A stretch of DNA of 64,000 nt from positions 6,146-70,145 of the IMG/VR virus record IMGVR_UViG_3300031952_000015. One strand, written 5' to 3'. Every line of letters starts with the position of its first letter. The stretch's first letter is position 1. This stretch comes from a virus. Positions 4,927 to 28,364 of the stretch are shown here, in pieces. The notes under the pieces were generated by a model. It saw nothing but the letters and a program-made list of their open reading frames with translations. It ran no database searches and had not been told where the DNA came from. A program made the translations under genes and the position numbers.

Positions 4927-7743
4927 TCAAAATCTTCCGCTGCCTCGAGCCTGCCGTTTCATCCAAGCGATCTTCTCAGGCCAAGTGACTTGGGCGAGGG
5001 TTTTCCTCAGCTCCTCAGTGTCCCGCTTCTCGAGGATCGGAAGCTTTTGCGGTCCCGGAACCGGGACAGTCGATGAATAATCTACAGTCGAGCCGATGCC
5101 AGACCTGAATCCCTCCTTAAGCAGCGCGAGAGCGTTTGCCCAGAACAGGTCTGCGTGTCCTTCAAGCCGCTTGTGGTCAGCCTTGAAGTCATAGTTCACT
5201 GCGTTCAAGTGCTTTACCTGCAGATCATCTCCGATGAAGCTCACTGAATCGTCCTGCATCATGTGCTTCATGTTTGTCGCCATCCGGTCGATGATCGGAA
5301 GCCGCTTCCCCCCTTGGCCAGATCTGACTCTCTCCGAGAACTGGATGCCCTCGACCATCGACCCATGCCGGCGTCTGAGGTAGTCGAACAGCCCAGTGCC
5401 GACGCCAGTCATGTCAATCCGGACCTTCACGATGCTCGGGAAGTGCCTGAAGAGGCTTGAAATTAGCGCTTCTTGATCTGGAGTGGAGACGTTCTTCAAG
5501 AGGCCGATGAATCGCTGTGTCATCCGCAGCTTTCCGTCCTCTGGATCGATGGTCTTCTCGAACAATGAGACTGCGGTGAAGTCTCGGCTCCGAGCGACAT
5601 CGATCCCTATGTACATCGGATTGTCAGTCTTGAAGACGAACTCAGAATCCTTTATGATGTCCTCATAGTAATTCTTCAGCTCATTGTCGATGCACTGCAT
5701 GATAAGAGAGTATGGTAAGAAGCTAAGTGAATCATCAAGGAACGAGCAATTATGAACGATCCCGATCTCAGTCAAATAGGTACTGTCGCCATCAACATCA
5801 AGATTCCAAACATCTCCAGAATAATCTTTAAAATCTATAGTTCTTATCTTAAGAAGATCAAATTTATCAAATTGAAAGACCTTGCTATGACGAACGCCCT
5901 GATGCGCTATACCAAAGAATTTAGATAGTCTTTCGAATGATTTACCATATATCTGGATTTGATAGGGGGGATTTCGGTTGACTTTCCTTCCAAGCAACAT
6001 TGCAGTTTTCCGCTTGTCTTTTGAAACATGCACACTCGAATAGACATTGTTCATAAGAAGCACGAGATTGATCTCTTTAGCCAATCTCTCCGAGATGGTC
6101 CCATAAATATATTTTTTCTCGGTCCGACAACCATCGCCATCAAAACACCCATTCAAAAGCCACATCATCTGATCCCTTGAAAGGTCCCAAACAAATTCTG
6201 GAAGGTGTTTATTCTTAGCTCCTATACCGAACAGTATGCGAAAGACGTCATGGAGAAGCTTATTAAAACAGACCACTTCTGTCGATGTCGGCCGAGTATC
6301 ATGATTTGAAATTGATGCTCGTTTCCCAAAGTACATCTCTATCGTCGTCTGGACTTCAGAAATTAATTGGCTCTCGCTCGATGAAAACCCAAACCTCAAT
6401 TGATTGCCAACGGCAGACCCTTCAGCAATATAAAGTCCAAACAGTCTAAGAACATCTCTATTAAGCGGGATCTCATCATATATTGAATTTTTAGGTTCGT
6501 TAAGTGGCAAAGAATTTCCTTTTGTCCATTTGACCTTATGATAAATCCGATCCCCAGATCTAATGAATGTGTCTCCAAGATATGCACTCAATCTGATGCT
6601 CTTAATGCCCCTGCGGCCATTCAATCTTGGAAATAGGATATAATCTCCAGGCTTGAGTTCCCCTGCCAACCTGAACTCTGGCGAGATCTTAAGGTACTCT
6701 CTCCTTGACTTGTTATTCTTGATTGAAAGGATTGGGTGATTTTTCGTGAGAGACATCTCGTTCCCTCCCCATACCTGCATCTTAACGCATTCTTCAGATA
6801 TTTTACGAGAGAGTATTCCCTTAACGATAGAAACCCCGCCATCTCGATTCAGTATCCTATCTCCAATGGAGATATTCTTGATTTGCATTGGTTTTTCTCC
6901 GAGGACGACTGTGTCAGGATGCAAGCACATTTGTTCCTGTTTGAAGATCTCAATATCTCTCTGCCGCTTCGTCTCAAGCTTCTTGACATTGATCCACGGC
7001 GCAATCGGAATAAGATTCTGAGGTTCCAGTGGCTTAAAGATGTCGACCTTGCTCGGATCATAGACTGGGAGGTTGAACACTCGGAATCCGACTGGTTTGT
7101 TGACAAGCCTGAAGAAATTATTGTTCCTGCCGTACGGCGTCGAGCCGATGATCGTCTGCGAGAGGCTTCCGATCATCGCATCCTGGACTGCTGCCAAAAG
7201 CTCATCTGATCTATTCTGGAACGCGTACTCATCGACCAGGCAGCGCATCAAGCGAAGACTTCTGACTGAATCCGCTGCGCTTCCAGACGGATATGACGCG
7301 ATGACTGATCCGGTCTTCTTGTTCCGGAGTTCAGTCTCCTTGAACTCAAACTGATCCTTGAGATTCCCGCAAGAGTTTAAAATGAACCACTTGCAGAGCT
7401 TGACTATGTAATTCGATGCCTTCTGTCGCTGCGCGATGACTGGGATAGTCTGGTTGTCGAAGATGCTCGCGGTCGTGATGATGTCGACACATGATGATGA
7501 CGTGAACGACACTCCCCTTGCTTTGATGTAAAGGATGTCCTTCGCATCAACCCCCTTGATGTTGAGCGACTCCAAGTGGAATTGCGCTTGGTACTTTGTC
7601 GGGACGTACGGGATCGGCTGGCCAGTCTCACTTCGCATCCTGAATGTGTTCGTAAGAAGCAGAAGGTACTCTTGCTGCTGAGCAGTCAACTCGATAGTCG
7701 GATCATACCAGCTCGGCAAGTACTTGATCTCAGGGAGCTCCAT
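4927..7743 (-). CDS. terL: Terminase large subunit with intein
   Basis: Walker A-like KARGVSFT, Walker B CLVDEYAF, coupling motif GSTPYGRNN, nuclease motifs YIGIDVARSRDFT, IDMTGVG and HADLFWANALAL. Confidence 0.92.
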   Translation of the reverse strand: MELPEIKYLPSWYDPTIELTAQQQEYLLLLTNTFRMRSETGQPIPYVPTKYQAQFHLESLNIKGVDAKDILYIKARGVSFTSSSCVDIITTASIFDNQTIPVIAQRQKASNYIVKLCKWFILNSCGNLKDQFEFKETELRNKKTGSVIASYPSGSAADSVRSLRLMRCLVDEYAFQNRSDELLAAVQDAMIGSLSQTIIGSTPYGRNNNFFRLVNKPVGFRVFNLPVYDPSKVDIFKPLEPQNLIPIAPWINVKKLETKRQRDIEIFKQEQMCLHPDTVVLGEKPMQIKNISIGDRILNRDGGVSIVKGILSRKISEECVKMQVWGGNEMSLTKNHPILSIKNNKSRREYLKISPEFRLAGELKPGDYILFPRLNGRRGIKSIRLSAYLGDTFIRSGDRIYHKVKWTKGNSLPLNEPKNSIYDEIPLNRDVLRLFGLYIAEGSAVGNQLRFGFSSSESQLISEVQTTIEMYFGKRASISNHDTRPTSTEVVCFNKLLHDVFRILFGIGAKNKHLPEFVWDLSRDQMMWLLNGCFDGDGCRTEKKYIYGTISERLAKEINLVLLMNNVYSSVHVSKDKRKTAMLLGRKVNRNPPYQIQIYGKSFERLSKFFGIAHQGVRHSKVFQFDKFDLLKIRTIDFKDYSGDVWNLDVDGDSTYLTEIGIVHNCSFLDDSLSFLPYSLIMQCIDNELKNYYEDIIKDSEFVFKTDNPMYIGIDVARSRDFTAVSLFEKTIDPEDGKLRMTQRFIGLLKNVSTPDQEALISSLFRHFPSIVKVRIDMTGVGTGLFDYLRRRHGSMVEGIQFSERVRSGQGGKRLPIIDRMATNMKHMMQDDSVSFIGDDLQVKHLNAVNYDFKADHKRLEGHADLFWANALALLKEGFRSGIGSTVDYSSTVPVPGPQKLPILEKRDTEELRKTLAQVTWPEKIAWMKRQARGSGRF
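5749..6927 (-). mobile_element. Intein (393 aa) with LAGLIDADG homing endonuclease
   Basis: Starts CLHPDTVV; block B LTKNHPI; LAGLIDADG-like LFGLYIAEG and LNGCFDGDG; ends VWNLDVDGDSTYLTEIGIVHN followed by Cys +1; visibly more AT-rich than the flanks. Confidence 0.93.
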
Positions 7744-10956: not shown

Positions 10957-11664
10957 TCACCCCTCCAAGATCTTATCGCACATGAACATCACTGCAGCCA
11001 AATGATCTCTCATCCCAGTCTCACGAGCCGCGCTCTGGAACTTGTCGAACTCCTCGTCGTTCATCAGTAATTTTACCTCATTGTACTTCGGCCTGTCCCT
11101 GAGAACCTTGACGTCTGCCTCGGCAGCGAGCTGGTCCATCTCCAAGAGCGTCTTGTGGCTCTCAATGATCTCTGGGGCGGTGTTAAGGATCTCTCCCAAC
11201 TGCTTCACCTCGATGACCTTCGTCATCTCAAGGTAAGTAGCGCCGCGCTTCACTGGGTCTGGTTCTCCCTTGATGTCATTCATGAGGACGGTGAGGATCC
11301 GGACGACGACTGAGTAGAAGTCTTCATTGATCTCGTCTGGCAACGGCAGCGGGATCAGTCCTTCCTCATGCATCACCTTAGAGAAGTTGACAATGTCCTT
11401 GTCAGTGATGACGACACAGTCAATCGTCTTCGCTCCGCGATCCTTGTCAGCATTCCAGCGGTGCTCGCCGTCGATGATGATGTTCCTTGTCGCTGGGATG
11501 ATCCCGCGAGTGCGATCGACATGGCTCCAGACTAGGATAGGCTGGAGATTGCCAAACCTCGACATCGTCCGCTTGAGATGGGCGAACATCCCGTCGCTCA
11601 TGAGGTTGTCGTTCCAGCCATTCGGCTCGAGAGAGTCGATGTTAAGAGTCTTGATCTCACTCAT
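10957..11664 (-). CDS. ParB/Srx N-terminal domain protein
   Basis: LEPNGWNDN, FGNLQPILV, IIIDGEHRW. Confidence 0.85.
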   Translation of the reverse strand: MSEIKTLNIDSLEPNGWNDNLMSDGMFAHLKRTMSRFGNLQPILVWSHVDRTRGIIPATRNIIIDGEHRWNADKDRGAKTIDCVVITDKDIVNFSKVMHEEGLIPLPLPDEINEDFYSVVVRILTVLMNDIKGEPDPVKRGATYLEMTKVIEVKQLGEILNTAPEIIESHKTLLEMDQLAAEADVKVLRDRPKYNEVKLLMNDEEFDKFQSAARETGMRDHLAAVMFMCDKILEG

Positions 11665-11842
11665 CTGGCTCCTCCTCGAAGATCTTAGTCCGGCAATTAG
11701 GATTCTTACAAGTCCAATCTCTAGTCAGTGTCCCATCCTTCTTGGTATATCCAGTCTGAGGCGCATCGCTCCGCATCTTGCAAGTCGGGCACTTGTTCAA
11801 GACTTTCTCCTTCTCCTTGATCCCCTTCCCCTTAAATGGCAT
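11657..11842 (-). CDS. Small zinc-ribbon protein
   Basis: CPTC...CKNPNC. Confidence 0.55.
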   Translation of the reverse strand: MPFKGKGIKEKEKVLNKCPTCKMRSDAPQTGYTKKDGTLTRDWTCKNPNCRTKIFEEEPDE

Positions 11843-12067
11843 TTACTCCCTCTTCTTCTCCTTGAGCACATCAATCTTCTCGCGGATCTGCTTGACCTCG
11901 TCCTCAAGGGTCACGATAGATCTCAGGATCGCCTTCTGGCGCTCCCACTCCACCTTGAGCTCGTCAATCTTCGACTCAAGCACTTTTTCCTTTGCAGTGA
12001 TGAGCTCCTCGAGCTCCTCAATCCTCACCTTGTTGTCGTCGATCATTTTGATTTCCTCCCTGAACAA
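11843..12067 (-). CDS. Coiled-coil protein
   Basis: Heptad-rich, charged sequence. Confidence 0.5.
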   Translation of the reverse strand: MFREEIKMIDDNKVRIEELEELITAKEKVLESKIDELKVEWERQKAILRSIVTLEDEVKQIREKIDVLKEKKRE

Positions 12068-12219: not shown

Positions 12220-14451
12220 TTAAATGCTTTGCTCCTTTTTCCGTGACTTAGGAGCTTTCTTGATGTCCAATGTCTCCCACGGGTAGTCCTGGAAGACAGA
12301 CCTCAGGATGCGCTCAGATGGCGGCCAGATGATGTGCGACCAATAATGGTCTTGATCGTATCCTGACGTGTAGCTCTCAGAGTAGATCGGCATCTTTCCC
12401 TTCGGGCCCTTGATGTAGATGTGCGAGATCTTCTGGCCGACCATGACCTCAGCGCCGCACTCGATCATCTGCTTCGCGACCAGCACATGCGGGATCGCGG
12501 TCTTGTACTCGATGATTGGCTTCGTCAGCTCCTTGTAGAGGAGGACATCGTCCTTCGTCAACTGACCAATCTGAACCAACGTCCGCTGAGCTGAGAGGTA
12601 TTCGAAGATCTCTAGCGAGGACTTGCCATTGAAGATCATGTCGATCACTGTCCGCTGCATCCTTAAAGCAAAGGCCGACTGGTCAGTCCTCACGAGCTCG
12701 ATCCCCTTGCAGAAGAATCTCGGTTCGATCTTCTTACCCTCATCCCAAGTCTGGACTCCAGCGTAGCGCTTCTTCGTGCCCTTCTCCTTATCGCCGACGA
12801 AGATCATCTGCTTGACTACCTTCTCGAACTTCATCTCAATCTTTCGGTCCTCTGGCGCGATGTTGAAGTTCCCAAGCAACGTCAAGTAAAAATCATTAAG
12901 CTCCTGCGTGAGCTTCTGTCCCAATGCAATCTGCTCGTCCAAGTTGTCCTTGTTGATCTTCACGAACAGGGAATCAGTGTCGATGTAGATAACTTGATAG
13001 CCCTTCTCCTCAAGGAAATTCTTGCTGATCTTGATGAGCCATCTCCCTGCCCGGGTGACTGAGCCAGCGATGTCGATGTGGTAGTATCTTGAGACTGGGT
13101 TGCCCATGACGCCGTAAAAACTGAGCAGGATGACCTTCGGCACCTTCTCCAAGATGTCATACAAGACCCACTCTGGCGTCCCCTTATCGAACGCATTGCG
13201 CTTCCGCAAGTAATAATTCCGCTCATCCTCAAGTCCAGTAAGAATTTGAGGGATGACTCCCTTGATGTCCTTCGCAAACCAAGCTGAATCATCTTCTGGG
13301 ACGTAGATCTTCTCCTTGCCAGCTCGCAGCGTTTCTGGTGAGATATTCCAACTTTGCATGATGCGATTGTAGAGCGACTTGAAGTCCAATATCAAGATAC
13401 CTCGATGCAATCCGGCCGGCGGCTCCTGCACATATCCTCCAACGAACGAGGTGCGCGTCGCCTTTGACTTCGGCCGGTACGGGAACCTTAACCCGAGCTT
13501 CAGCTCTCTCACCTTCCTAAGAATCATGTTGTCGATGATGATGGTCGGGAATCTTACCTCCTCAAGAAGACAATTCGTCTTTGAGCTCAACGAGTCTAAG
13601 ATCTGAGTGATCTGGAACTTCTCATCTATTTTCTTCATGAGCTTGCAATCCATGACATTGTACTCCATCAGCTTCTGCTTGTCCTCAAGGTAGGTCTCGA
13701 TCACCTTCTTGCCCAGCTTGATCTTCGTTTCTCCGAGCTCTGCGAGCGCGACATCATTCAGCGCGTACGACCGCATCCGCTTCATTTTGATGAACCTAGC
13801 CATGATGTCAAACTTCTGGAAGTATCTCCAGTTCAACTCTATCCCAAGCCAATTGCATCGCTCCTCCAAGTATGGGAAGTCAAACCCGTCGCCGTACCAC
13901 GCGACCAAGACATCGTAATCCTTCACAGCATTGTAGAAATCGCGGATAAGCCTCCGCTCGCAGTCTCGGTCCTTGTGGTTCTCGTTGATGAAGAACTTTA
14001 CCTTATCATTCTGATCGACGCACGCGATGCTCAAGATCGGATACCGACCAACATGAATCTCTGAGATCGTGTCATCTGTCTCGATGTCGATGTAGAGGAT
14101 CTTGAGTTTGTCAGTCCCTACCGGGGTGAGTGTGTCAATCAAGTACCGTCTCCAATATGGGATGTCTGACTCATAGGTCTTGACTCCAGCAACCTCAAGC
14201 GCGTCTCGGATCTTGTAGACCATGCCAGCTCTCTTGAGATACAGCTTAGCATACTTCCCCGTATACTCGACATCTGAGATCTCGCGAATCCGGGTGTACC
14301 GTTCGACTGCAGGATGCCCGCGATCGCCAGCTCCGATGATGATGTAATGCCTGAACACGGGGTAGTCGATCACCTGCTCGAACTTGTTGTCGCCATCCCG
14401 GTAAAGCAAAGTTATGGCATTGAACTTCGTCCAAGCAGAAACAATCCTCAA
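12220..14451 (-). CDS. polB: Family B DNA polymerase with 3'-5' exonuclease
   Basis: ExoI YIDIET, ExoII WYGDGFDFPYL, ExoIII YNVMD, motif A DFKSLYN, motif B KVILLSFYG, motif C YIDTDS, KKRYAG, KGIELVR. Confidence 0.96.
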   Translation of the reverse strand: MRIVSAWTKFNAITLLYRDGDNKFEQVIDYPVFRHYIIIGAGDRGHPAVERYTRIREISDVEYTGKYAKLYLKRAGMVYKIRDALEVAGVKTYESDIPYWRRYLIDTLTPVGTDKLKILYIDIETDDTISEIHVGRYPILSIACVDQNDKVKFFINENHKDRDCERRLIRDFYNAVKDYDVLVAWYGDGFDFPYLEERCNWLGIELNWRYFQKFDIMARFIKMKRMRSYALNDVALAELGETKIKLGKKVIETYLEDKQKLMEYNVMDCKLMKKIDEKFQITQILDSLSSKTNCLLEEVRFPTIIIDNMILRKVRELKLGLRFPYRPKSKATRTSFVGGYVQEPPAGLHRGILILDFKSLYNRIMQSWNISPETLRAGKEKIYVPEDDSAWFAKDIKGVIPQILTGLEDERNYYLRKRNAFDKGTPEWVLYDILEKVPKVILLSFYGVMGNPVSRYYHIDIAGSVTRAGRWLIKISKNFLEEKGYQVIYIDTDSLFVKINKDNLDEQIALGQKLTQELNDFYLTLLGNFNIAPEDRKIEMKFEKVVKQMIFVGDKEKGTKKRYAGVQTWDEGKKIEPRFFCKGIELVRTDQSAFALRMQRTVIDMIFNGKSSLEIFEYLSAQRTLVQIGQLTKDDVLLYKELTKPIIEYKTAIPHVLVAKQMIECGAEVMVGQKISHIYIKGPKGKMPIYSESYTSGYDQDHYWSHIIWPPSERILRSVFQDYPWETLDIKKAPKSRKKEQSI

Positions 14452-17267: not shown

Positions 17268-17957
17268 TCACCCCCTTGCTTTCTGCTTCCGCAGTTGTGC
17301 CTTGATAAGTGAGATGAGCTTCTTCTCGGTGGCTGCTGCGTAGGCTGCGTAGTAGGCTGCGGAGGCTGCGTAGTAGGCTGCGTTGGCTGCGTAGGCTGCT
17401 GCGTAGGCTGCGTAGGCTGCTGCGTAGGCTGCTGCGGAGGCTGCTGCGTAGGCTGCGTAGTAGGCTGCTGCGGAGGCTGCTACGTCGGCTGCTGCGTAGG
17501 CTGCGTAGTAGGCTGCGGAGGCTGCTATGCGATTTTCTTCGCTCGGCTCTTTCAGCCATGCCTCTGCCGCTTCTATCGCCTGTCGCGGTCTTTTGTCCTG
17601 CGGATATTTCGTCTCGAAATTCTTAAGGCATTTCTTCGCTGCCCAAATCGCGAACTTCACCGATACCTCTTTGAGGTTCTCGACCTCTTGCACGATGCGC
17701 ATCTCCTCTGAACAGAACTTGTCGTCCTTCTCGTGCAGCACCTTGCCCCGTGCCTCAACGATAAACAGCCGAGGGCCATACACGTAAGACTGGAATGCCT
17801 TAAGCGGCGATTCGCAGGCATGGAAGCCCGCATTGCACATCTCCAGTTTGCCCTCGTGCTTCTTCCACGCGCCGAGCTTCCACTTCTCGATAGTGCCGTT
17901 CTTGCTTGTCATGTCCTCCTTGAGGAACTTATAGCCTTTGATTGTCTTTGCTCTCAT
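17268..17957 (-). CDS. Phage protein with CxxGFHAC domain, Imm5-like helical part and Ala/Tyr repeats
   Basis: GYKF...LEMCNAGFHACESP; DKRPRQAIEAAEAWL; AAYYAAYAAA tract. Confidence 0.7.
   Translation of the reverse strand: MRAKTIKGYKFLKEDMTSKNGTIEKWKLGAWKKHEGKLEMCNAGFHACESPLKAFQSYVYGPRLFIVEARGKVLHEKDDKFCSEEMRIVQEVENLKEVSVKFAIWAAKKCLKNFETKYPQDKRPRQAIEAAEAWLKEPSEENRIAASAAYYAAYAAADVAASAAAYYAAYAAASAAAYAAAYAAYAAAYAANAAYYAASAAYYAAYAAATEKKLISLIKAQLRKQKARG
17330..17527. repeat. Low-complexity coding repeat built from GCTGCGTAG-type units
   Basis: Tandem ggctgcgta / ggctgctgcg units encoding the A/Y/S tract. Confidence 0.9.
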
Positions 17958-18239: not shown

Positions 18240-18816
18240 CTCTCGTCTCCTCCCTCATCTTAGGTATGAACTTCTCAATCGATGTGAGCTCGCCCAACTG
18301 GAGCGAGTAAAGTTTTCGTCCATTGAGCTCAACTACATTGATCCGTCCAGTCTTGATCCTCGTCCTGAGCGTCTGCTTCGTGATGTACCCTACGCCGACG
18401 ACTCTTATTGCTCCGCTATCTGGGATCTCGCTATACCGAGCGCCCAAGTAGATGTCGAAGTCTGGATCCTTGAACGGCAGGTAGAGATTCCCAGTAGTCG
18501 TCGTCTTAACATCAATCGTCTTCTTCTTGACCTTGAAGTCTGGCTTGTCCCACTCTGGCTTGATGAACTCGATCCACTCGTGCGGGATCTTGTTCTCAGT
18601 GAGCCATCGGTCGAAGCAGTGCTCGCCGAGGTAGCCGATGAAGTTAAGCTTCTGATCTGCCTCTGGATAAGCTTTCTGCTGGTCAAACTCTCGAGTCTTC
18701 TCTCGCGCGAGCGCGAGCAATGCCGGCGAAATCTCATACCACAATTTGCCTGACCTCAAACCCGAATCGGTCCTTCCAGACCCAGACCTCTCTCGTCGCC
18801 CAGATTGGCACGACAA
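18202..18816 (-). CDS. Restriction-endonuclease-fold (PD-(D/E)XK) protein
   Basis: GYLGE...PDFKV...IDVKTT; true start probably near 18740. Confidence 0.6.
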   Translation of the reverse strand: MSCQSGRRERSGSGRTDSGLRSGKLWYEISPALLALAREKTREFDQQKAYPEADQKLNFIGYLGEHCFDRWLTENKIPHEWIEFIKPEWDKPDFKVKKKTIDVKTTTTGNLYLPFKDPDFDIYLGARYSEIPDSGAIRVVGVGYITKQTLRTRIKTGRINVVELNGRKLYSLQLGELTSIEKFIPKMREETRDGGGISAEGLPA

Positions 18817-19042
18817 GGGTCTTGATCTCGCGAATCCCGATCTTCAATTGGCTATTGACGCGCGACTTTGTCCGCTTGACTTGGATGAACCGGACTGTCT
18901 CCGCACTGGTCGCGACAAGATCGGCTGGCGATTGAGATCCGGTCGCGCGGATCACTTGGAATCCATTCATGATCAGCTCAGCTTTCGCCTGCAGCTCAAC
19001 TTGATACCCGCGCTGATAGTTTGTGACCATCAGGATGGGCAC
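18734..19042 (-). CDS. hjc: Hjc-like Holliday junction resolvase
   Basis: YQRGYQVE...GFQVIRATGS..PADLVA...FIQVK. Confidence 0.7.
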   Translation of the reverse strand: MPILMVTNYQRGYQVELQAKAELIMNGFQVIRATGSQSPADLVATSAETVRFIQVKRTKSRVNSQLKIGIREIKTLVVPIWATREVWVWKDRFGFEVRQIVV

Positions 19043-19410
19043 CCGTACTCGAATGGAGGGAGATCGTCATCCTCGTCCCAGATCTTAGCTCCGCTTGGGT
19101 AGATGACCCCGCTGTGATAGATCCCAGCATGACCAGCATCATCGTGGATCTGGACGTGCTTTGTCTTAGGATTCCAAGCGATTGAGACGCTCCCGACCCA
19201 ATCATCTGGATACCGATGGTAGTTGACTGCGGTCGCGACTTGCCCGATCAAGCTGTAGAGATTACCGATAGTTGGAGCATCCGCAGTGCAGCTCTCTTGG
19301 AAGAATTCTAAAAGATCTTCATACTCGATGTAGTCCTCCAATCCAGATGGAATCCGCTTGAAGATCCCGGTATCAGAATCCATGATCTCAAGTTGTGGTT
19401 TGTCGCTCAT
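19030..19410 (-). CDS. Hypothetical acidic protein
   Basis: 126-aa ORF coupled to the TS-like gene. Confidence 0.55.
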   Translation of the reverse strand: MSDKPQLEIMDSDTGIFKRIPSGLEDYIEYEDLLEFFQESCTADAPTIGNLYSLIGQVATAVNYHRYPDDWVGSVSIAWNPKTKHVQIHDDAGHAGIYHSGVIYPSGAKIWDEDDDLPPFEYGCPS

Positions 19411-20093
19411 TTGTTCTCCTCCAATAGCTTGTCCATCTTATCCCAATGCTTCTCGTAGATGTGGAGGCTGCCGCAGTGGTGGAAGTACTTTCCGACTCCC
19501 ACGTTGAGCTCTGAGGCCATCCGCTTCTGCATCTGAGTGAAGCAATAGATGTCATTCCGAGTCCCGTAGTAGATGTCTTGCGACCGCATGTAGGTGTGCC
19601 AGTCGAGATTCCCGTCGCGCAAGAAGACGTGGAGGTACATTGTGCAGGGGAGATCCTTCGTCGGCTTCTCCTTATCATACGCTGAGTTGATGTTGATGAC
19701 GCACTGCCGAGAATCTGGATCCTCCCTGAGCTTCTTGACCACCCAATCCCACTGGTTGATTCCGATCTTAGGGTCCTTACCGAAGATCCGATAGCCATAG
19801 GCCGAATTCACAGTGATGCCGTCGTCTGAGAACTTCTCCCACGTCCGCTTGATAGTATCTGAGAAGTCGATCCGATTCGAGCCAGAGTAGTACCACTTGA
19901 GCTCCTCCTCAGCGTACTCAACGTTCGTCTCGAACCCCGGCAGAGTCACCTCATTGTAGCACGGATTAATCTCAAAGGTGAATCCAAAGACCTCTCTGAC
20001 ACTCATCCTGCGCGGAGCGGTGACGAGTCCCGCATCTCTCAACGTCCTGAGAGCTCTCAAGTACTCATGATTCACTGTCTCCACCAGATCCAT
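19407..20093 (-). CDS. Thymidylate synthase family protein, probably dCMP hydroxymethylase or methylase
   Basis: NSAYGYRI, DPDSRQ, catalytic PCT, MRSQDIYYGTRND, GSLHIYEKH; Asp rather than Asn at the base-specificity position. Confidence 0.8.
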   Translation of the reverse strand: MDLVETVNHEYLRALRTLRDAGLVTAPRRMSVREVFGFTFEINPCYNEVTLPGFETNVEYAEEELKWYYSGSNRIDFSDTIKRTWEKFSDDGITVNSAYGYRIFGKDPKIGINQWDWVVKKLREDPDSRQCVININSAYDKEKPTKDLPCTMYLHVFLRDGNLDWHTYMRSQDIYYGTRNDIYCFTQMQKRMASELNVGVGKYFHHCGSLHIYEKHWDKMDKLLEENK

Positions 20094-20463: not shown

Positions 20464-20739
20464 CTAACTTTGTAAAACCGACGGATATGCGTCATTGTAC
20501 CGTGGATCTCGCTTGAGAGCAGACGCATCCGGACGAGGATACATCTCGATGAGCGGAGTGCTCTCCATCTCCTTGATCTTCTTGTCGATTGCGGCGATCT
20601 GCCGAAGCAACCCATCCTTGTCGGTGAGGTGCCGTTCCATGTCAATGACGTAGAGAAGCTTCCGCAATTTCTCTACGTTCTCTGCCGCTATCTTTGTCAA
20701 TTCCTTGTTGTCTTCCATGTCTTGTCCCTCCGGGCTCAA
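20464..20739 (-). CDS. Hypothetical protein
   Basis: 91-aa helical ORF. Confidence 0.5.
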   Translation of the reverse strand: MSPEGQDMEDNKELTKIAAENVEKLRKLLYVIDMERHLTDKDGLLRQIAAIDKKIKEMESTPLIEMYPRPDASALKRDPRYNDAYPSVLQS

Positions 20740-21146
20740 TAGCCCTCATCTTGTCTCTTGTGGTTGATCCCATTTTTCACACAATAAAGCCGGTAGAGTT
20801 CGTCTGCATCCATGTCGACTGCAATGCACCGGTTCATGAAGAAGTGGAATTCATCGACCAGTTCCATCTTAGCTCGCTCAATATTCCGCTCCGTTAAGAT
20901 CTGAGAGACCTTCCAAGGCTTCCATGGGAATTCTCTCAAGTACTCCATAATCTCGTCGATGTTCGCAAGCGTCATCACTCGGATAAATTGGATCCGAGCT
21001 TCATTAGATTTAAATGGGATCGTCTTCAGCCGAAGTTGGAGCTTCTTCTGAAGTTCAAACATCTCTCCGAGCCGATCAAGGACTGGCATTCTCACAGAAC
21101 TTCCCTCATCTCTTGTCTCGTCTTGTCCCATCTGGATCCCCCTCAT
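20736..21146 (-). CDS. All-alpha dNTP pyrophosphatase (T4 gp56-like dCTPase/dUTPase)
   Basis: DEIME...WKPWK...ELVDEFHFFMN...Y..KN..N..RQDEGY. Confidence 0.85.
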   Translation of the reverse strand: MRGIQMGQDETRDEGSSVRMPVLDRLGEMFELQKKLQLRLKTIPFKSNEARIQFIRVMTLANIDEIMEYLREFPWKPWKVSQILTERNIERAKMELVDEFHFFMNRCIAVDMDADELYRLYCVKNGINHKRQDEGY

Positions 21147-23810: not shown

Positions 23811-24770
23811 TTAGACATCTTTGATCCCTCCACGGGTGATGATGAATGGTGCCTCGCCGTCCGGGAGGTGCGGAGCGTCGACCAGCTTCGCGACCTTAGT
23901 CCCCCTGGACCCCTTCCGCAAGTAGATGCGGTACATCGCATTGTGGCCGACGATATGGCCGCCAACTGCTCGAGTCGGATCGCCGAACAATTGGCCTGGA
24001 TTCACCATGACTTGGTTTGTGACATAGACGATGACGTTGTAGATGTCGGCGAGCCGTGTGAGGTGCTGGAGATGTTTGTTGAGCTTCTGTTGCCTCTCAG
24101 CGAGCGTCCCTCGCCCGAGGTACTCCCCCCTGAACGCGGCAGTAAGACTGTCGACGACGATGAGCTTCACAGGGAGCTTGTCGTCGGTGATCAGCCTCTC
24201 TGCCTTCTCAGCTAAGAGCATCTGATGGTCGGTCGAGTAGGATCGCGCATATTTTATGTTCTTCAAGACCAACTCTCCATCGATGCCGGCAGCCTCCGCG
24301 ATCTCCCGGATCCGCTGCGGCCTGAAGGACCCCTCGCTGTCAATCCAAATGCACACGCCGCTGTGGGGCTCTTTTTGGACGTTCACTGCGAGCTGATGGG
24401 CGATCTGCGTCTTGCCAGAGCTGAACTCGCCATAGCACTCAGTGATGCTCCCAGACTCGAACCCGCCGTCGATGAGCGCGTCGAGCTTCTCGCTCCCGAT
24501 CTTGACATGGAAGATCTTCTTCCGATATTCTTCCTGCTCGAACCCAGTCTTGAAGTCTAATCCGCAGAGCTCTCGCGCCGCGTTGATCAGCTTCATGGTG
24601 GAGAGCTTGTTCATCTCAGTGAGATCCATCACGTCGGCCACTGAGGCAGTCGCGATCTTCATCAAGGTGGAGTAGCCGGCGTTGATCAGCTTCTCCGCAG
24701 TCGCTGGTCCGACTCCAGGCAGGTCGGTGATCTCAGAAACAGTCTCCTCAGTCTCGGGCTTCTTCTTCAT
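23811..24770 (-). CDS. radA: Archaeal DNA recombinase RadA
   Basis: HhH DLPGVGPATAEKL, Walker A GEFSSGKTQ, IDSEGSFRPQRI, VVDSL, GRGTLAERQQKL, TNQV, GGHIVGH, KLVDAPHLP. Confidence 0.96.
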   Translation of the reverse strand: MKKKPETEETVSEITDLPGVGPATAEKLINAGYSTLMKIATASVADVMDLTEMNKLSTMKLINAARELCGLDFKTGFEQEEYRKKIFHVKIGSEKLDALIDGGFESGSITECYGEFSSGKTQIAHQLAVNVQKEPHSGVCIWIDSEGSFRPQRIREIAEAAGIDGELVLKNIKYARSYSTDHQMLLAEKAERLITDDKLPVKLIVVDSLTAAFRGEYLGRGTLAERQQKLNKHLQHLTRLADIYNVIVYVTNQVMVNPGQLFGDPTRAVGGHIVGHNAMYRIYLRKGSRGTKVAKLVDAPHLPDGEAPFIITRGGIKDV

Positions 24771-26093: not shown

Positions 26094-26145
26094 TTTTTTA
26101 TATCATGAGTTCTCATCGGAAACACCTTTAGACTTCTTGTCGTTT

Positions 26146-27597
26146 TTAATCATTGCTCTCATTCTTCATCCCTAGATAAAATTTCTCCTCCTTGAGCTGG
26201 CAGACCCAGATGCAGTTCCTAGACTGCTTCGGGAACAGCGGCGCGAAGATGACTGAGACCAGATTGCAGTCATAGTACTCGCTGAGCTCATCGAAGAGTT
26301 GTCTCTGAGCAGGAGTCATCAGCTTCTCATAGTCCTTCTGGGATGCGAACGTGCCGTAGACCTTCTTGATCTTGAAGTACTTCGACAGCAGCATCTCCAT
26401 CTCAGCGTACGTCAGCTCGCCGACCTCTCCCTCGATCATGTGGTTGTCTGCGGCGCCGACCTTCGCGTCATAGCATGGCGTCGAGATCATCAGGACAGTA
26501 TTCTGGTTCATGTGTGATTGGATGTTCATCATGAACTGGTTATGGTTCTTCTTCCCGATGTGCTCGAGGACCTCGAAGCAGGTGATGAAGTCCCAACTAT
26601 TCCCATACTTCCCAGCGGGCGCCGCGATGTCTCCAGCCATCGTCGGATCGCACAGGTCTTCAACCTCAAATCTTACCCACTTGGTGACGAGATTCGCATA
26701 CTTCTCCTTGAGCGATTCGATCGTCTTATCTCGGATGTCGATCCCGAGATAGCTCTTAATGCAGCGGCGGTTGTGGTACAGCGTCGCCAGATTGCCACCA
26801 TCACCACAGCCCCAGTCCAAGAGAGTCTTCTCATGGAAGTTCGGCGTGATGAGCTTCAATAGATAGCTCCACCGGAGGTAGTGGGCGAAGATGTCGCGGT
26901 GGAACACATGGTTCTCGAACGAGACCTCAGGGTAGAGTTGGGTTCGGTTATACTTAGTTTTCCTCTTGACTGGACTCTCTGCAGGCTTCGGCGCATTATG
27001 CTCCTCAGCATCGATCTCCTGGTGCATTGCCTTGTCCTTCTCATAGTGCTCGAACATTTCTGCCACATTAACCTCCTCCACCGGCTTTGAGTACCCAGCT
27101 TCCCACTCCATGATGTAGTCGTAGATCATCTCTGGAGTCATGTCGTCAACGAACACAAGCAGCTTGCGCTTGATGTTCGACGCTGCGAACTCTCGCCCGA
27201 ATCGTATCAAGATCTCCGGGATCTGCTCTGGCTTGATGAACTTCCCGTCGAACCTTGACAGCACAAGCTCAGGCGATGCAGTCAAGACAATCAAGATTGT
27301 ATTCTCATTGAGCGTTCTCTCTAATTCTCGCATGTAGTCTGGATAGTAGTTTCTGAAGATCGGCCCATAAATGCACTCGCCGAGAAGAAATCTGTCATAG
27401 ATGATGTCGCAGCCCGCATTGAGATCCTTGATTCCTCGGATGTACTCTTGCCGAGCATACTCCTTCTGATCGCTTTGCGAGAGGTTGATCGGCGGGTTCT
27501 TGCAGTGGCGGACATCAAATGTCCCATGCTTGAGGAACTCGTTGATCAATGTAGTCTTTCCAGTACAGTCACATCCACAAATTAAATAATTTGTCAT
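26146..27597 (-). CDS. dNMP kinase fused to class I SAM-dependent methyltransferase
   Basis: N-terminal P-loop GCDCTGKTT and DRFLLGECIYG; C-terminal LLDWGCGDG, LGIDI and CFEVLEH. Confidence 0.85.
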   Translation of the reverse strand: MTNYLICGCDCTGKTTLINEFLKHGTFDVRHCKNPPINLSQSDQKEYARQEYIRGIKDLNAGCDIIYDRFLLGECIYGPIFRNYYPDYMRELERTLNENTILIVLTASPELVLSRFDGKFIKPEQIPEILIRFGREFAASNIKRKLLVFVDDMTPEMIYDYIMEWEAGYSKPVEEVNVAEMFEHYEKDKAMHQEIDAEEHNAPKPAESPVKRKTKYNRTQLYPEVSFENHVFHRDIFAHYLRWSYLLKLITPNFHEKTLLDWGCGDGGNLATLYHNRRCIKSYLGIDIRDKTIESLKEKYANLVTKWVRFEVEDLCDPTMAGDIAAPAGKYGNSWDFITCFEVLEHIGKKNHNQFMMNIQSHMNQNTVLMISTPCYDAKVGAADNHMIEGEVGELTYAEMEMLLSKYFKIKKVYGTFASQKDYEKLMTPAQRQLFDELSEYYDCNLVSVIFAPLFPKQSRNCIWVCQLKEEKFYLGMKNESND

Positions 27598-27650
27598 TTA
27601 CGTTCCCTCCGTAATTTTTTAATAGATCGCGGCATATCCATAGTCTTCAT

Positions 27651-28364
27651 CTACTTTGACATCGCCTCCTTGCGAATCTTCTCGACATGAGCTTCGACTC
27701 CCTTATTAAACCTTATCACATAGCTCGGGTGCTGGACTGTGACGACCTCAGGCATTGGGTGCTTTAAGTCTGAGAAGGCTTTCTCGGCATGCTTCAGGGC
27801 TCCCTGGACCCCCTTAGATGCGACGCTGCCGAGGCATATAATCTTCTTAGGCTTGAGGTTCTTGATGGCCGCAGTGAGATCCTGGATGCCCTCCTCAATG
27901 ACCTCCTTGAGATCTTTCATCTGAGCTCCTGGGCAGTATGTGTTGAAGACATTCGTCAAGTAGATGTTGTGCAGTCCCTTGATAGCCTTCTCGATCAGAT
28001 CTCCGGTCCGGTTGCCGTGGAAGACCTCAAGATTCTGGTCCTTCTTCCGCTGGCGTCCTGGGCACATGCCGACAATCATCGTGCAATTATTCGTCCGATC
28101 GACGTCTCTCGGCGAGTACTTGATCCGCTTGCTCGTGTCAGGGATCCTCGCCATCGGCTCGACTGCATTGATTGGTTTCTCGACCTTGACCTCATCCTTC
28201 TTCAGCTTCAGTCCTTTCCCACCGCACTTCGGGCACTCGAGATCTCTTTCGAGCCCATAGCATTTCTTCTCATAGTTGCACACAGTGCAGCTCCAAATAT
28301 CATAGCATCCGCTGCGGTCTTCTATTGTCATTAAATTCTTCTTCTCCCATACCACGTCGTTCAC
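27651..28364 (-). CDS. Uracil-DNA glycosylase superfamily protein (family 4/5-like) with N-terminal zinc ribbon
   Basis: MIVGMCPG, FHGNRTG, YLTNV, PKKIICLGSVA, HPSY; CTVC...CPKC. Confidence 0.75.
   Translation of the reverse strand: MNDVVWEKKNLMTIEDRSGCYDIWSCTVCNYEKKCYGLERDLECPKCGGKGLKLKKDEVKVEKPINAVEPMARIPDTSKRIKYSPRDVDRTNNCTMIVGMCPGRQRKKDQNLEVFHGNRTGDLIEKAIKGLHNIYLTNVFNTYCPGAQMKDLKEVIEEGIQDLTAAIKNLKPKKIICLGSVASKGVQGALKHAEKAFSDLKHPMPEVVTVQHPSYVIRFNKGVEAHVEKIRKEAMSK

Follow-up and report, generated by a model that had tools for sequence, protein, structure and literature searches.

The 64,000-nt stretch of viral DNA analyzed here (the window; positions 6,146 to 70,145 of the 70,145-nt contig IMGVR_UViG_3300031952_000015, from a sediment metagenome) has the genome architecture of a tailed virus and carries nearly all of its genes on the minus strand. 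At positions 26146 to 27597 on this strand lies a gene of 483 aa, a single uninterrupted frame with an ATG start, that joins three parts: a P-loop kinase domain of the YorR/thymidylate kinase type (aa 1 to 168; 27094 to 27597), a charged linker (about aa 169 to 216; 26950 to 27093), and a class I S-adenosylmethionine (SAM) methyltransferase domain of a virus-specific family (aa ~217 to 483; 26149 to 26949). A first-pass annotation made from the letters of the DNA had proposed this layout, and motifs, family profiles, structure models, and the intact open reading frame (ORF) bear it out. Genes for a nucleoside triphosphate (NTP) pyrophosphohydrolase and a thymidylate synthase (TS) homolog lie 5 to 6 kb downstream on the same strand.

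The region from 26100 to 27700 is identical, without gaps, in a second assembly (a Logan contig of 34,448 nt, depth 11.8), which rules out a quirk of one assembler. This identity is not independent support, since the only public run holding this DNA is probably the source sample. The fusion is unique so far, and each half belongs to a large viral family. Among the best 120 of 348 matches to the fusion ORF in a collection of 5.8 billion proteins, the window's own protein was the only full-length match; the other 119, mostly 265 to 330 aa long, cover 48 to 56% of the ORF, corresponding to the methyltransferase half. No methyltransferase relative of 490 to 2000 aa was found at an E value of ≤1e-10, which by the search's own rating is weak evidence. 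The linker, counted as the 48 residues from aa 168 to 215, contains 11 D+E and 8 K+R; its edges have a low predicted local distance difference test (pLDDT) score in both domain models, and unfused homologs have no counterpart to it except the methyltransferase's own N-terminal tail. Complex prediction with the two domains gave a score of 0.00 in both runs, with no controls folded, and speaks neither for nor against binding.

The N-terminal half is a predicted nucleoside-monophosphate kinase of the YorR/thymidylate kinase type. Its Walker A P-loop, of the form GxxxxGK[ST], reads GCDCTGKT (aa 7 to 14), and an alignment of 60 homologs shows G13 and K14 to be invariant. The same alignment has R69 invariant and D68 near-invariant in YDRF, the kinase's version of the DR(Y/F/H) motif (here DRF), R115 and D117 near-invariant in the LID-region SRFDGK (RFDG), and E74, Y77, and R82 retained. 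The DR(Y/F/H) motif and the LID arginine, which we take to be hallmarks of thymidylate kinases (TMPKs), align with vaccinia virus TMPK and YorR when the family profile is compared with the PDB. In that comparison, the profile of the 60 homologs matched YorR of prophage SPbeta (2axp/3kb2) over its full length (positions 1 to 165) at 1.9e-24, and matches to thymidylate kinases ranged from 6.5e-9 to about 1e-6. PHROG 761, 'thymidylate kinase', was matched at 2.4e-9 (aa 5 to 165), and the Pfam families AAA_18 and Thymidylate_kin were matched weakly, below their cutoffs (14.8 bits versus 27 for Thymidylate_kin). The AlphaFold model (pLDDT of 95.2) was closest among 48,161 chains to YorR (Z of 18.8, root mean square deviation [rmsd] of 2.5, 158 residues aligned), followed by thymidylate kinases (Z of 14.3 to 15.8) and deoxynucleoside kinases (Z of about 14). 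The YorR entry in the PDB is labeled uncharacterized. A phmmer search of 1.84 billion representative proteins returned 506 kinase relatives at an E value of ≤1e-3 and 95 at ≤1e-10, and 131 of the best 150 homologs are stand-alone proteins of ≤230 aa.

The C-terminal half is assigned by its motifs to the class I SAM methyltransferases and not to the DNA amino- or C5-methyltransferases. It matches Pfam Methyltransf_23 at 1.6e-15, with four further class I families passing their cutoffs, and it has both motif I (LLDWGCGDG) and an acidic end of strand 2 (GIDIR), along with FEVLEH (within CFEVLEH), STPCYD..VGAADNH, GTFASQKDY, and APLFP..SRN. Of the columns in an alignment of 45 family members, 24 are invariant, and the window protein matches every one of them; R30, D57, and R256 are invariant, G59, C60, G61, G81, and D83 are near-invariant, and the conserved columns include HRD, H35, R38, W39, motif I, ExxEH, STP, AAxNH, GTFAS, and AP..P..R. 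The absence of DNA methyltransferase motif IV, which the first-pass annotation had claimed for this protein, extends to the whole alignment: (D/N/S)PP(Y/F/W/H) or PC(Q/H) was found in 0 of the 45 members, the window's included.

Structural comparison placed the domain in its class. A fold search with the model (pLDDT of 88.7) listed 50 class I entries with near-tied Z scores of 17.1 to 19.4, including CmoM (19.4), a heterocyclic-toxin methyltransferase (19.0), the vaccinia virus cap methyltransferase (18.6), ChlM (18.4), and HEN1 (17.9), and all 1,000 aligned chains had a Z of ≥8. Foldseek against the PDB returned generic methyltransferases (TM scores of 0.46 to 0.59), the viral library BFVD returned one unnamed phage methyltransferase (TM score of 0.77) and then capping enzymes, and the nearest ESM Atlas clusters were unnamed methyltransferases, almost all viral. 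When the family profile was compared with solved structures, the Rossmann half only was aligned (profile positions about 37 to 169), with a protein lysine methyltransferase (7.1e-10), HEN1 (7.7e-10), UbiG (1.3e-8), and bacterial Hen1 (1.8e-8) among the matches; the substrate-binding C-terminal half thus looks family-specific. The best NCBIfam matches were O-methyltransferases, far below their cutoff (UbiG, 1.8e-8).

The TS homolog (19407 to 20093, minus strand; Pfam Thymidylat_synt, 2e-26) carries a dCMP-hydroxymethylase signature and is the predicted source of 5-hydroxymethyl-dCMP (5hm-dCMP). Its best solved relative is the CMP hydroxymethylase MilA (2.2e-35), versus 8e-18 for TS and 4.5e-16 for T4 gp42. 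According to PMC13326640, N177D in the TS family leads to cytosine selectivity, acidity at the L143 position is associated with hydroxymethyl instead of methyl products, and D169N is the mark of 5-hydroxy-dCMP synthases, of which RB69 gp48 is a proven example. In all 80 TS homologs that we aligned (76 from loci of the methyltransferase family, 3 from phages, and the one in the window, where the motifs read DLPC...RSQD...ND), Asp occupies the L143 and N177 positions, and both the catalytic Cys and Asp169 are kept; the published Glu at L143 and Asn at 169 of RB69 gp48 were recovered when this sequence was aligned as a control. Because the hydroxymethylase residues are kept in all 80, the partner enzyme is predicted to make 5hm-dCMP and not dTMP, 5-methyl-dCMP, or 5-hydroxy-dCMP. 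A route through 5-hydroxycytosine, with O-methylation to 5-methoxycytosine, was rejected on the same alignment, since Asp169 is kept throughout; by the D169N test, the window enzyme is not of the 5-hydroxy-dCMP synthase type. As a separate observation, the best phage match to the window TS homolog is gp319 of Bacillus phage G (36% identity), which lies 2 kb from gp315, a kinase similar to that of the window (JN638751.1, 230945 to 234173); no homolog of the methyltransferase was found in that record.

If the methyltransferase belongs to a pathway of modified dCMP, as the first-pass annotation had suggested, its relatives should lie beside Asp-type TS homologs and not apart from nucleotide-modification genes, and this is the picture that emerged. 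Relatives are encoded on 451 IMG/VR stretches, of which the best-scoring 80 loci were analyzed. A TS homolog lies on the methyltransferase's strand in 76 of these 80 (tblastn), upstream in 22 and downstream in 54, at a median gap of 547 nt (≤500 nt in 38 loci and ≤1,500 nt in 54), and the same linkage holds in all four distinct GenBank phages with a match. Of the four remaining loci, three (L012, L036, and L068) are short contigs with the methyltransferase near an end, and L005 is a complete genome of 64.5 kb whose TS homolog lies about 13 kb away. The 80 loci form 11 groups at 70% methyltransferase identity, with TS in 10 of the 11, and gene order varies by group (NTPPase-TS-deaminase-MT, dUTPase-MT-kinase-TS-deaminase, kinase-MT-TS-dUTPase, TS-MT, and others, where MT is the methyltransferase). 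The background frequency of TS-family matches, counted at any position in a record, is 2,580 of 50,697 phage records; this base rate was used in place of control loci seeded with the window's Cas4-like protein, which gave 21 pattern matches and 0 confirmed. With every linked TS homolog of the hydroxymethylase type, the co-occurrence strongly supports placing the methyltransferase in a modified-dCMP pathway.

De novo clustering and Pfam identified further nucleotide-pool enzymes as neighbors: PF00692 dUTPase in 41 loci (5 groups), dCMP deaminase in 31 (6 groups), and PRA-PH pyrophosphatase in 13 (3 groups). A MazG/dimeric-dUTPase-like pyrophosphatase gene stands beside the methyltransferase in 19 of the 80 loci and also in the phage records AXL3, MW202510, and MW202621. 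In 17 loci (2 groups), with 3 more found by tblastn, a 159-aa kinase abuts the start of the methyltransferase gene. Since this kinase belongs to the window's kinase family (4.8e-18 over 145 columns in hhalign; likewise AXL3 gp29), the fusion joins two genes that are neighbors elsewhere in the same order. Two side observations concern these loci. A DUF6378 protein of about 90 aa is encoded directly beside the methyltransferase in 34 of the 80 (2 groups; for example, L070, 8981 to 9262). The L005 genome, which holds the closest methyltransferase (51% identity), has a PRA-PH pyrophosphatase and a kinase in one 349-aa ORF next to it; its TS homolog, an ORF of 403 aa, bears a long extension at the C terminus and a one-residue insertion before the specificity Asp (features at L005, about 11170 to 11960, and L086, 1477 to 2688).

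Among GenBank phages, the methyltransferase half matches five records from four phages. In Stenotrophomonas phage AXL3, the gene order is methyltransferase, NTP pyrophosphohydrolase, kinase, TS homolog, and dCMP deaminase (gene names from PMC7504290). MW202510 has methyltransferase, NTP pyrophosphatase, thymidylate kinase, 'pyrimidine hmase', and dCMP deaminase, the cassette of MW202621 is similar to it, and ORFs 58 to 63 of Pseudoxanthomonas phage PW916 list a deaminase, a 'deoxyuridylate hydroxymethyltransferase', an NTP pyrophosphatase, and a methyltransferase. The AXL3 paper states that the phage has a separate ThyX and that its DNA resisted 35 of 37 restriction enzymes, being cut only at AATT and TTAA; all 35 failing enzymes have G or C in their sites, and the authors conclude that there is an unexplained modification of G or C (PMC7504290). 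This pattern fits complete cytosine replacement and does not by itself give the identity of the base.

Other fusions bear on the step at which the methyltransferase would act. In P0003 (410 aa), a methyltransferase of this family is fused to a trimeric-dUTPase domain (dut, 9.8e-27). On the kinase side, 19 of the best 150 homologs exceed 230 aa, and a scan for second domains covered 18 of them: 2 are fused to a TS homolog, 1 to a dCMP deaminase, 1 to a dUTPase_2 domain, and 3 (P0223, P0248, and P0270, with P0256 as a weak further case) to a uracil-DNA glycosylase (UDG) domain above the Pfam cutoff, while 10 have no recognized second domain. The gene immediately upstream of the window's fusion gene encodes a UDG-superfamily protein (27651 to 28364, minus strand; family-4-like, with a Cys-rich N terminus; Pfam UDG, 8e-11; NCBIfam UDG_fam4, 1.4e-8, below cutoff). 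Taken with the kinase-UDG fusions elsewhere, this position suggests a functional link between the kinase family and a UDG-like domain, and the UDG-superfamily protein may belong to the same module. Our main argument for a methyltransferase that works on a free nucleotide is that the fusion partners, UDG excepted, all act on free nucleotides; on this ground we put action at the nucleotide level at an even balance.

We are fairly confident that the methyltransferase is a tailoring enzyme of a 5-hydroxymethylcytosine (5hmC) pathway, and the explanation we favor overall, with moderate confidence, is that the fusion gene encodes a bifunctional enzyme of viral cytosine replacement. In the proposed scheme, the MazG/dimeric-dUTPase-like NTP pyrophosphohydrolase (20736 to 21146, minus strand; Pfam dUTPase_2, 8.6e-13; PHROG 173, 'nucleoside triphosphate pyrophosphohydrolase', 3e-17), a predicted dCTPase/dUTPase, would turn dCTP into dCMP, thereby removing the former and supplying the latter, and the TS homolog would convert dCMP to 5hm-dCMP. 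The SAM methyltransferase would then methylate 5hm-dCMP, and the kinase domain would phosphorylate the modified monophosphate. Host nucleoside diphosphate kinase and the viral family B polymerase would complete its passage into DNA, where it would replace cytosine and shield the genome from restriction. By analogy with the cassette of the 5hmC carbamoyltransferase discussed below, the likeliest acceptor would be the hydroxymethyl oxygen, giving 5-methoxymethyl-dCMP, with N4 as the main alternative. The methyltransferase would thus fill the slot held by glucosyl-, arabinosyl-, or carbamoyltransferases in known hydroxypyrimidine pathways. No glycosyltransferase family of Pfam was matched in the 56 window ORFs or in 5 more from the 6 kb of contig beyond the window, in agreement with the first-pass annotation, which had recognized none. 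These viruses probably build an undescribed methylated hydroxymethylcytosine into their DNA. That the product is 5-methoxymethylcytosine is a tentative proposal, drawn from the carbamoyltransferase analogy and a weak similarity to O-methyltransferases. The scenario in its full extent strikes us as possible but somewhat unlikely: in hundreds of tailed bacterial viruses, and in one or more viruses that probably infect archaea, 5-methoxymethylcytosine would take the place of cytosine, a dedicated SAM-dependent 5hm-dCMP O-methyltransferase would make it from the free nucleotide ahead of replication, and in the present virus this enzyme would be fused to the kinase that activates its product.

Several observations weigh against this pathway or against parts of it. 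The fusion gene is 5 to 6 kb from the pyrophosphatase and TS genes and not adjacent to them, and a search of the window found no dCMP deaminase, PF00692 dUTPase, or DUF6378 homolog. The counts of linked loci overstate independence, since they come from 80 of 451 loci, chosen by score and representing 11 lineages. The restriction data for AXL3 are equally compatible with guanine modification, and the catalytic roles of the family are predictions from sequence. The case for nucleotide-level action draws on analogy and on two methyltransferase fusions (the window and P0003). Hydroxypyrimidines are in most known cases tailored on DNA (PMC13326640), and the carbamoyltransferase of the analogous cassette works well on single-stranded DNA (PMC8670742). 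Together with the fact that most of the 80 loci lack a kinase beside the methyltransferase, these two precedents favor the main rival, namely, that the pathway is the same but the methyltransferase acts after replication on 5hmC in DNA, in the manner of the T4 glucosyltransferases, and the fusion secures only co-expression and equal amounts. We regard this as unlikely, though it is the alternative that deserves most weight: both known fusion partners of the methyltransferase (kinase here, dUTPase in P0003) are free-nucleotide enzymes, the gene sits inside a nucleotide-pool cassette in many differing orders, and motif IV is missing from the whole 45-member alignment. Many members are acidic as well, but the isoelectric points of the family (5.1 to 9.2, median of 6.8) settle DNA binding neither way. 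The chemistry of the methyl transfer is a further weak point. The methyltransferase has no specific structural neighbor, the tied entries including N-methyltransferases, cap N7 methyltransferases, CmoM, and HEN1, and in the Rossmann half a lysine methyltransferase ties with HEN1 and UbiG; with matches that are near-tied and confined to this half, homology does not settle O- versus N-methylation. An in-pathway enzyme acting at N4 of the 5hm-dCMP ring, or on another nucleotide-pool compound, with no O-methyl ether formed, would agree with a fold search tied among O-, N-, and carboxyl-methyltransferases and with nearest profile matches that include, besides the lysine enzyme (7e-10), coclaurine and phosphoethanolamine N-methyltransferases. 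We consider this quite improbable, because N4-methylation would not need a hydroxyl and the exclusive pairing with hydroxymethylase-type TS (80 of 80) suggests that the new hydroxyl matters; the O-methyltransferases among the best NCBIfam matches, even if far below cutoff, also point away from it.

Two readings that leave the nucleotide pool altogether fare worse. In one, the protein would repair and protect the ends of tRNAs cut by host anticodon nucleases; its kinase would be a polynucleotide 5'-kinase, and its methyltransferase a Hen1-like enzyme for 3'-terminal 2'-O-methylation. HEN1 and HENMT1 are indeed best or near-best among solved relatives of the Rossmann half (8.5e-5 with the single sequence, 7.7e-10 with the profile) and have the highest identity (19 to 20%) and lowest rmsd (2.6 to 2.9) of the fold matches. 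FEVLEH lines up with the HENMT1 sequence IELIEH and is followed by the invariant His182, an arrangement (ExxEH plus a downstream His) that may correspond to the Hen1 metal ligands. However, UbiG has the same ExxEH-type motif, the C-terminal half does not align, and the bacterial Hen1 model TIGR04074 scored 19.1 bits against a cutoff of 340. The kinase is YorR/TMPK-like, with no polynucleotide kinase among the 50 best folds listed for its model. No Pnkp-type partner accompanies it, the 61 ORFs scanned gave no match to a ligase or phosphatase family, and in 76 of 80 loci the neighboring genes encode enzymes of the nucleotide pool. A Hen1/Pnkp-like role was therefore rejected as the leading interpretation on the model score, the profile alignment, and the kinase type, and RNA repair seems very improbable to us; an RNA or protein substrate, which would have overturned the first-pass annotation, finds little support in these data. 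The other reading makes the kinase a DNA hydroxymethylpyrimidine kinase like the 5-hydroxymethyldeoxyuridine (5hmdU) DNA kinase, 5-HMUDK, of M6 and ViI, activating 5hmC in DNA so that the methyltransferase acts on the resulting product. P-loop kinases do act on 5hmdU in DNA during thymidine hypermodification, according to PMC8989533, and the UDG-superfamily domain fused to some kinase homologs could flip DNA bases. In hhalign, though, the kinase family aligned with the 5hmdU DNA kinase M6 gp54 over 29 P-loop columns only (probability of 84.9% with this one reference sequence), compared with 115 columns for RB69 gp45 (8.2e-10) and the full length for YorR, and the other fusion partners of the family are TS, dCMP deaminase, and dUTPase_2; this possibility, too, we hold to be slight in the extreme.

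The rest of the window says something about the virus. It encodes an archaeal-type family B DNA polymerase (12220 to 14451), an Hjc-type Holliday junction resolvase (18734 to 19042), and a RadA/Rad51 protein with an N-terminal helix-hairpin-helix (23811 to 24770), all on the minus strand, and the closest viral relatives of the polymerase and RadA are haloarchaeal tailed viruses, at 27 to 35% identity. These archaeal-type replication and recombination genes make the contig probably an archaeal tailed virus, and such a host range would be unusual for a 5hmC-type cassette. Also on the minus strand, the gene for the large terminase subunit (Terminase_6C; 4927 to 7743) is split by an intein that comprises Hint domains and a LAGLIDADG homing endonuclease, and an 888-aa ORF with a Hint domain at its C-terminal end lies just outside the window (L087, 3268 to 5934, minus strand). 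A 229-aa protein with DUF7666 and an Imm5-like immunity-protein domain (17268 to 17957, minus strand) may serve anti-defense or immunity. A 235-aa protein (10957 to 11664, minus strand) has a ParB N-terminal domain that is barely at the Pfam cutoff; PMC13229309 reports that phage 5-methylpyrimidine dioxygenases have ParB-like partners, and no such dioxygenase was seen in the window.

Hypermodifications of phage DNA decide the outcome of restriction, CRISPR, and other defenses, and they supply tools for epigenetic sequencing and the chemistry of modified DNA. The known tailoring of 5hmC consists of sugars or a carbamoyl group. We found no published description of methoxymethylcytosine in DNA or of a role for this methyltransferase family, in a search that covered literature outside the subscription journals, and neither a SAM methyltransferase as tailoring enzyme nor a methylated 5hmC in DNA appears in that literature. 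If our proposal is correct, the enzyme would be without known precedent among SAM methyltransferases in using a free deoxynucleotide on its way into DNA, and 5-methoxymethylcytosine would be new among the DNA bases described from nature. With 451 IMG/VR loci the family is a large one, and the cultured phages AXL3 and PW916 carry it; the fusion in the window is so far the only hint of the place of its methyltransferase in the pathway, and the window adds to the carriers of the cassette a virus whose replication and recombination genes are of archaeal type.

The combination of a TS-like hydroxymethylase with a methyltransferase has a reported parallel outside viruses. In the bacimethrin pathway (Cooper et al., 2014), the TS-homolog CMP hydroxymethylase and the SAM methyltransferase (BcmA/BcmC) reportedly act together on a 5-hydroxymethylcytosine compound, with methylation at O2 of the free base, in the making of a small-molecule antivitamin. 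Methylation at O2 would break base pairing in DNA. The HEN1/Hen1 small-RNA methyltransferases have ExxEH in common with the window enzyme and differ from it in their context, which here is nucleotide metabolism. Closer to the window are three phage systems. The 5-hydroxy-dCMP pathway of RB69 and DLP3 (PMC13326640) has, like the window, a MilA-like TS homolog and a YorR-like 'nucleotide kinase', and RB69 gp45, encoded beside the 5-hydroxy-dCMP synthase, is homologous to the window kinase domain; D169N is found there, in contrast to the Asp169 of the window and 79 other methyltransferase-linked homologs, and arabinosyltransferases do the tailoring. The 5hmC carbamoyltransferase found by MetaGPA co-occurs with a TS homolog, PRA-PH, and dCMP deaminase and converts 5hmC to 5-carbamoyloxymethylcytosine at the oxygen of 5-CH2OH, on single-stranded DNA and 5hmdCTP (PMC8670742). 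That cassette has the same make-up, with one group-transfer enzyme; a class I SAM methyltransferase stands here in place of the TobZ-like carbamoyltransferase, the product would be an ether and not a carbamate, and the evidence in our case consists of genes. Finally, cytosine replacement in T4 (gp56 dCTPase, gp42, gp1 dNMP kinase, Cd deaminase, and glucosyltransferases) follows the same logic with most of the same components: an NTP pyrophosphatase, a TS homolog acidic at L143 and N177, a dedicated kinase, and, in most relatives of the window cassette, a dCMP deaminase. Unlike in T4, the window lacks a glycosyltransferase in the ORFs scanned, its TS homolog is nearer to MilA than to gp42, its kinase is YorR/TMPK-like and not gp1-like, and the tailoring slot would be taken by a SAM methyltransferase that is fused to that kinase.

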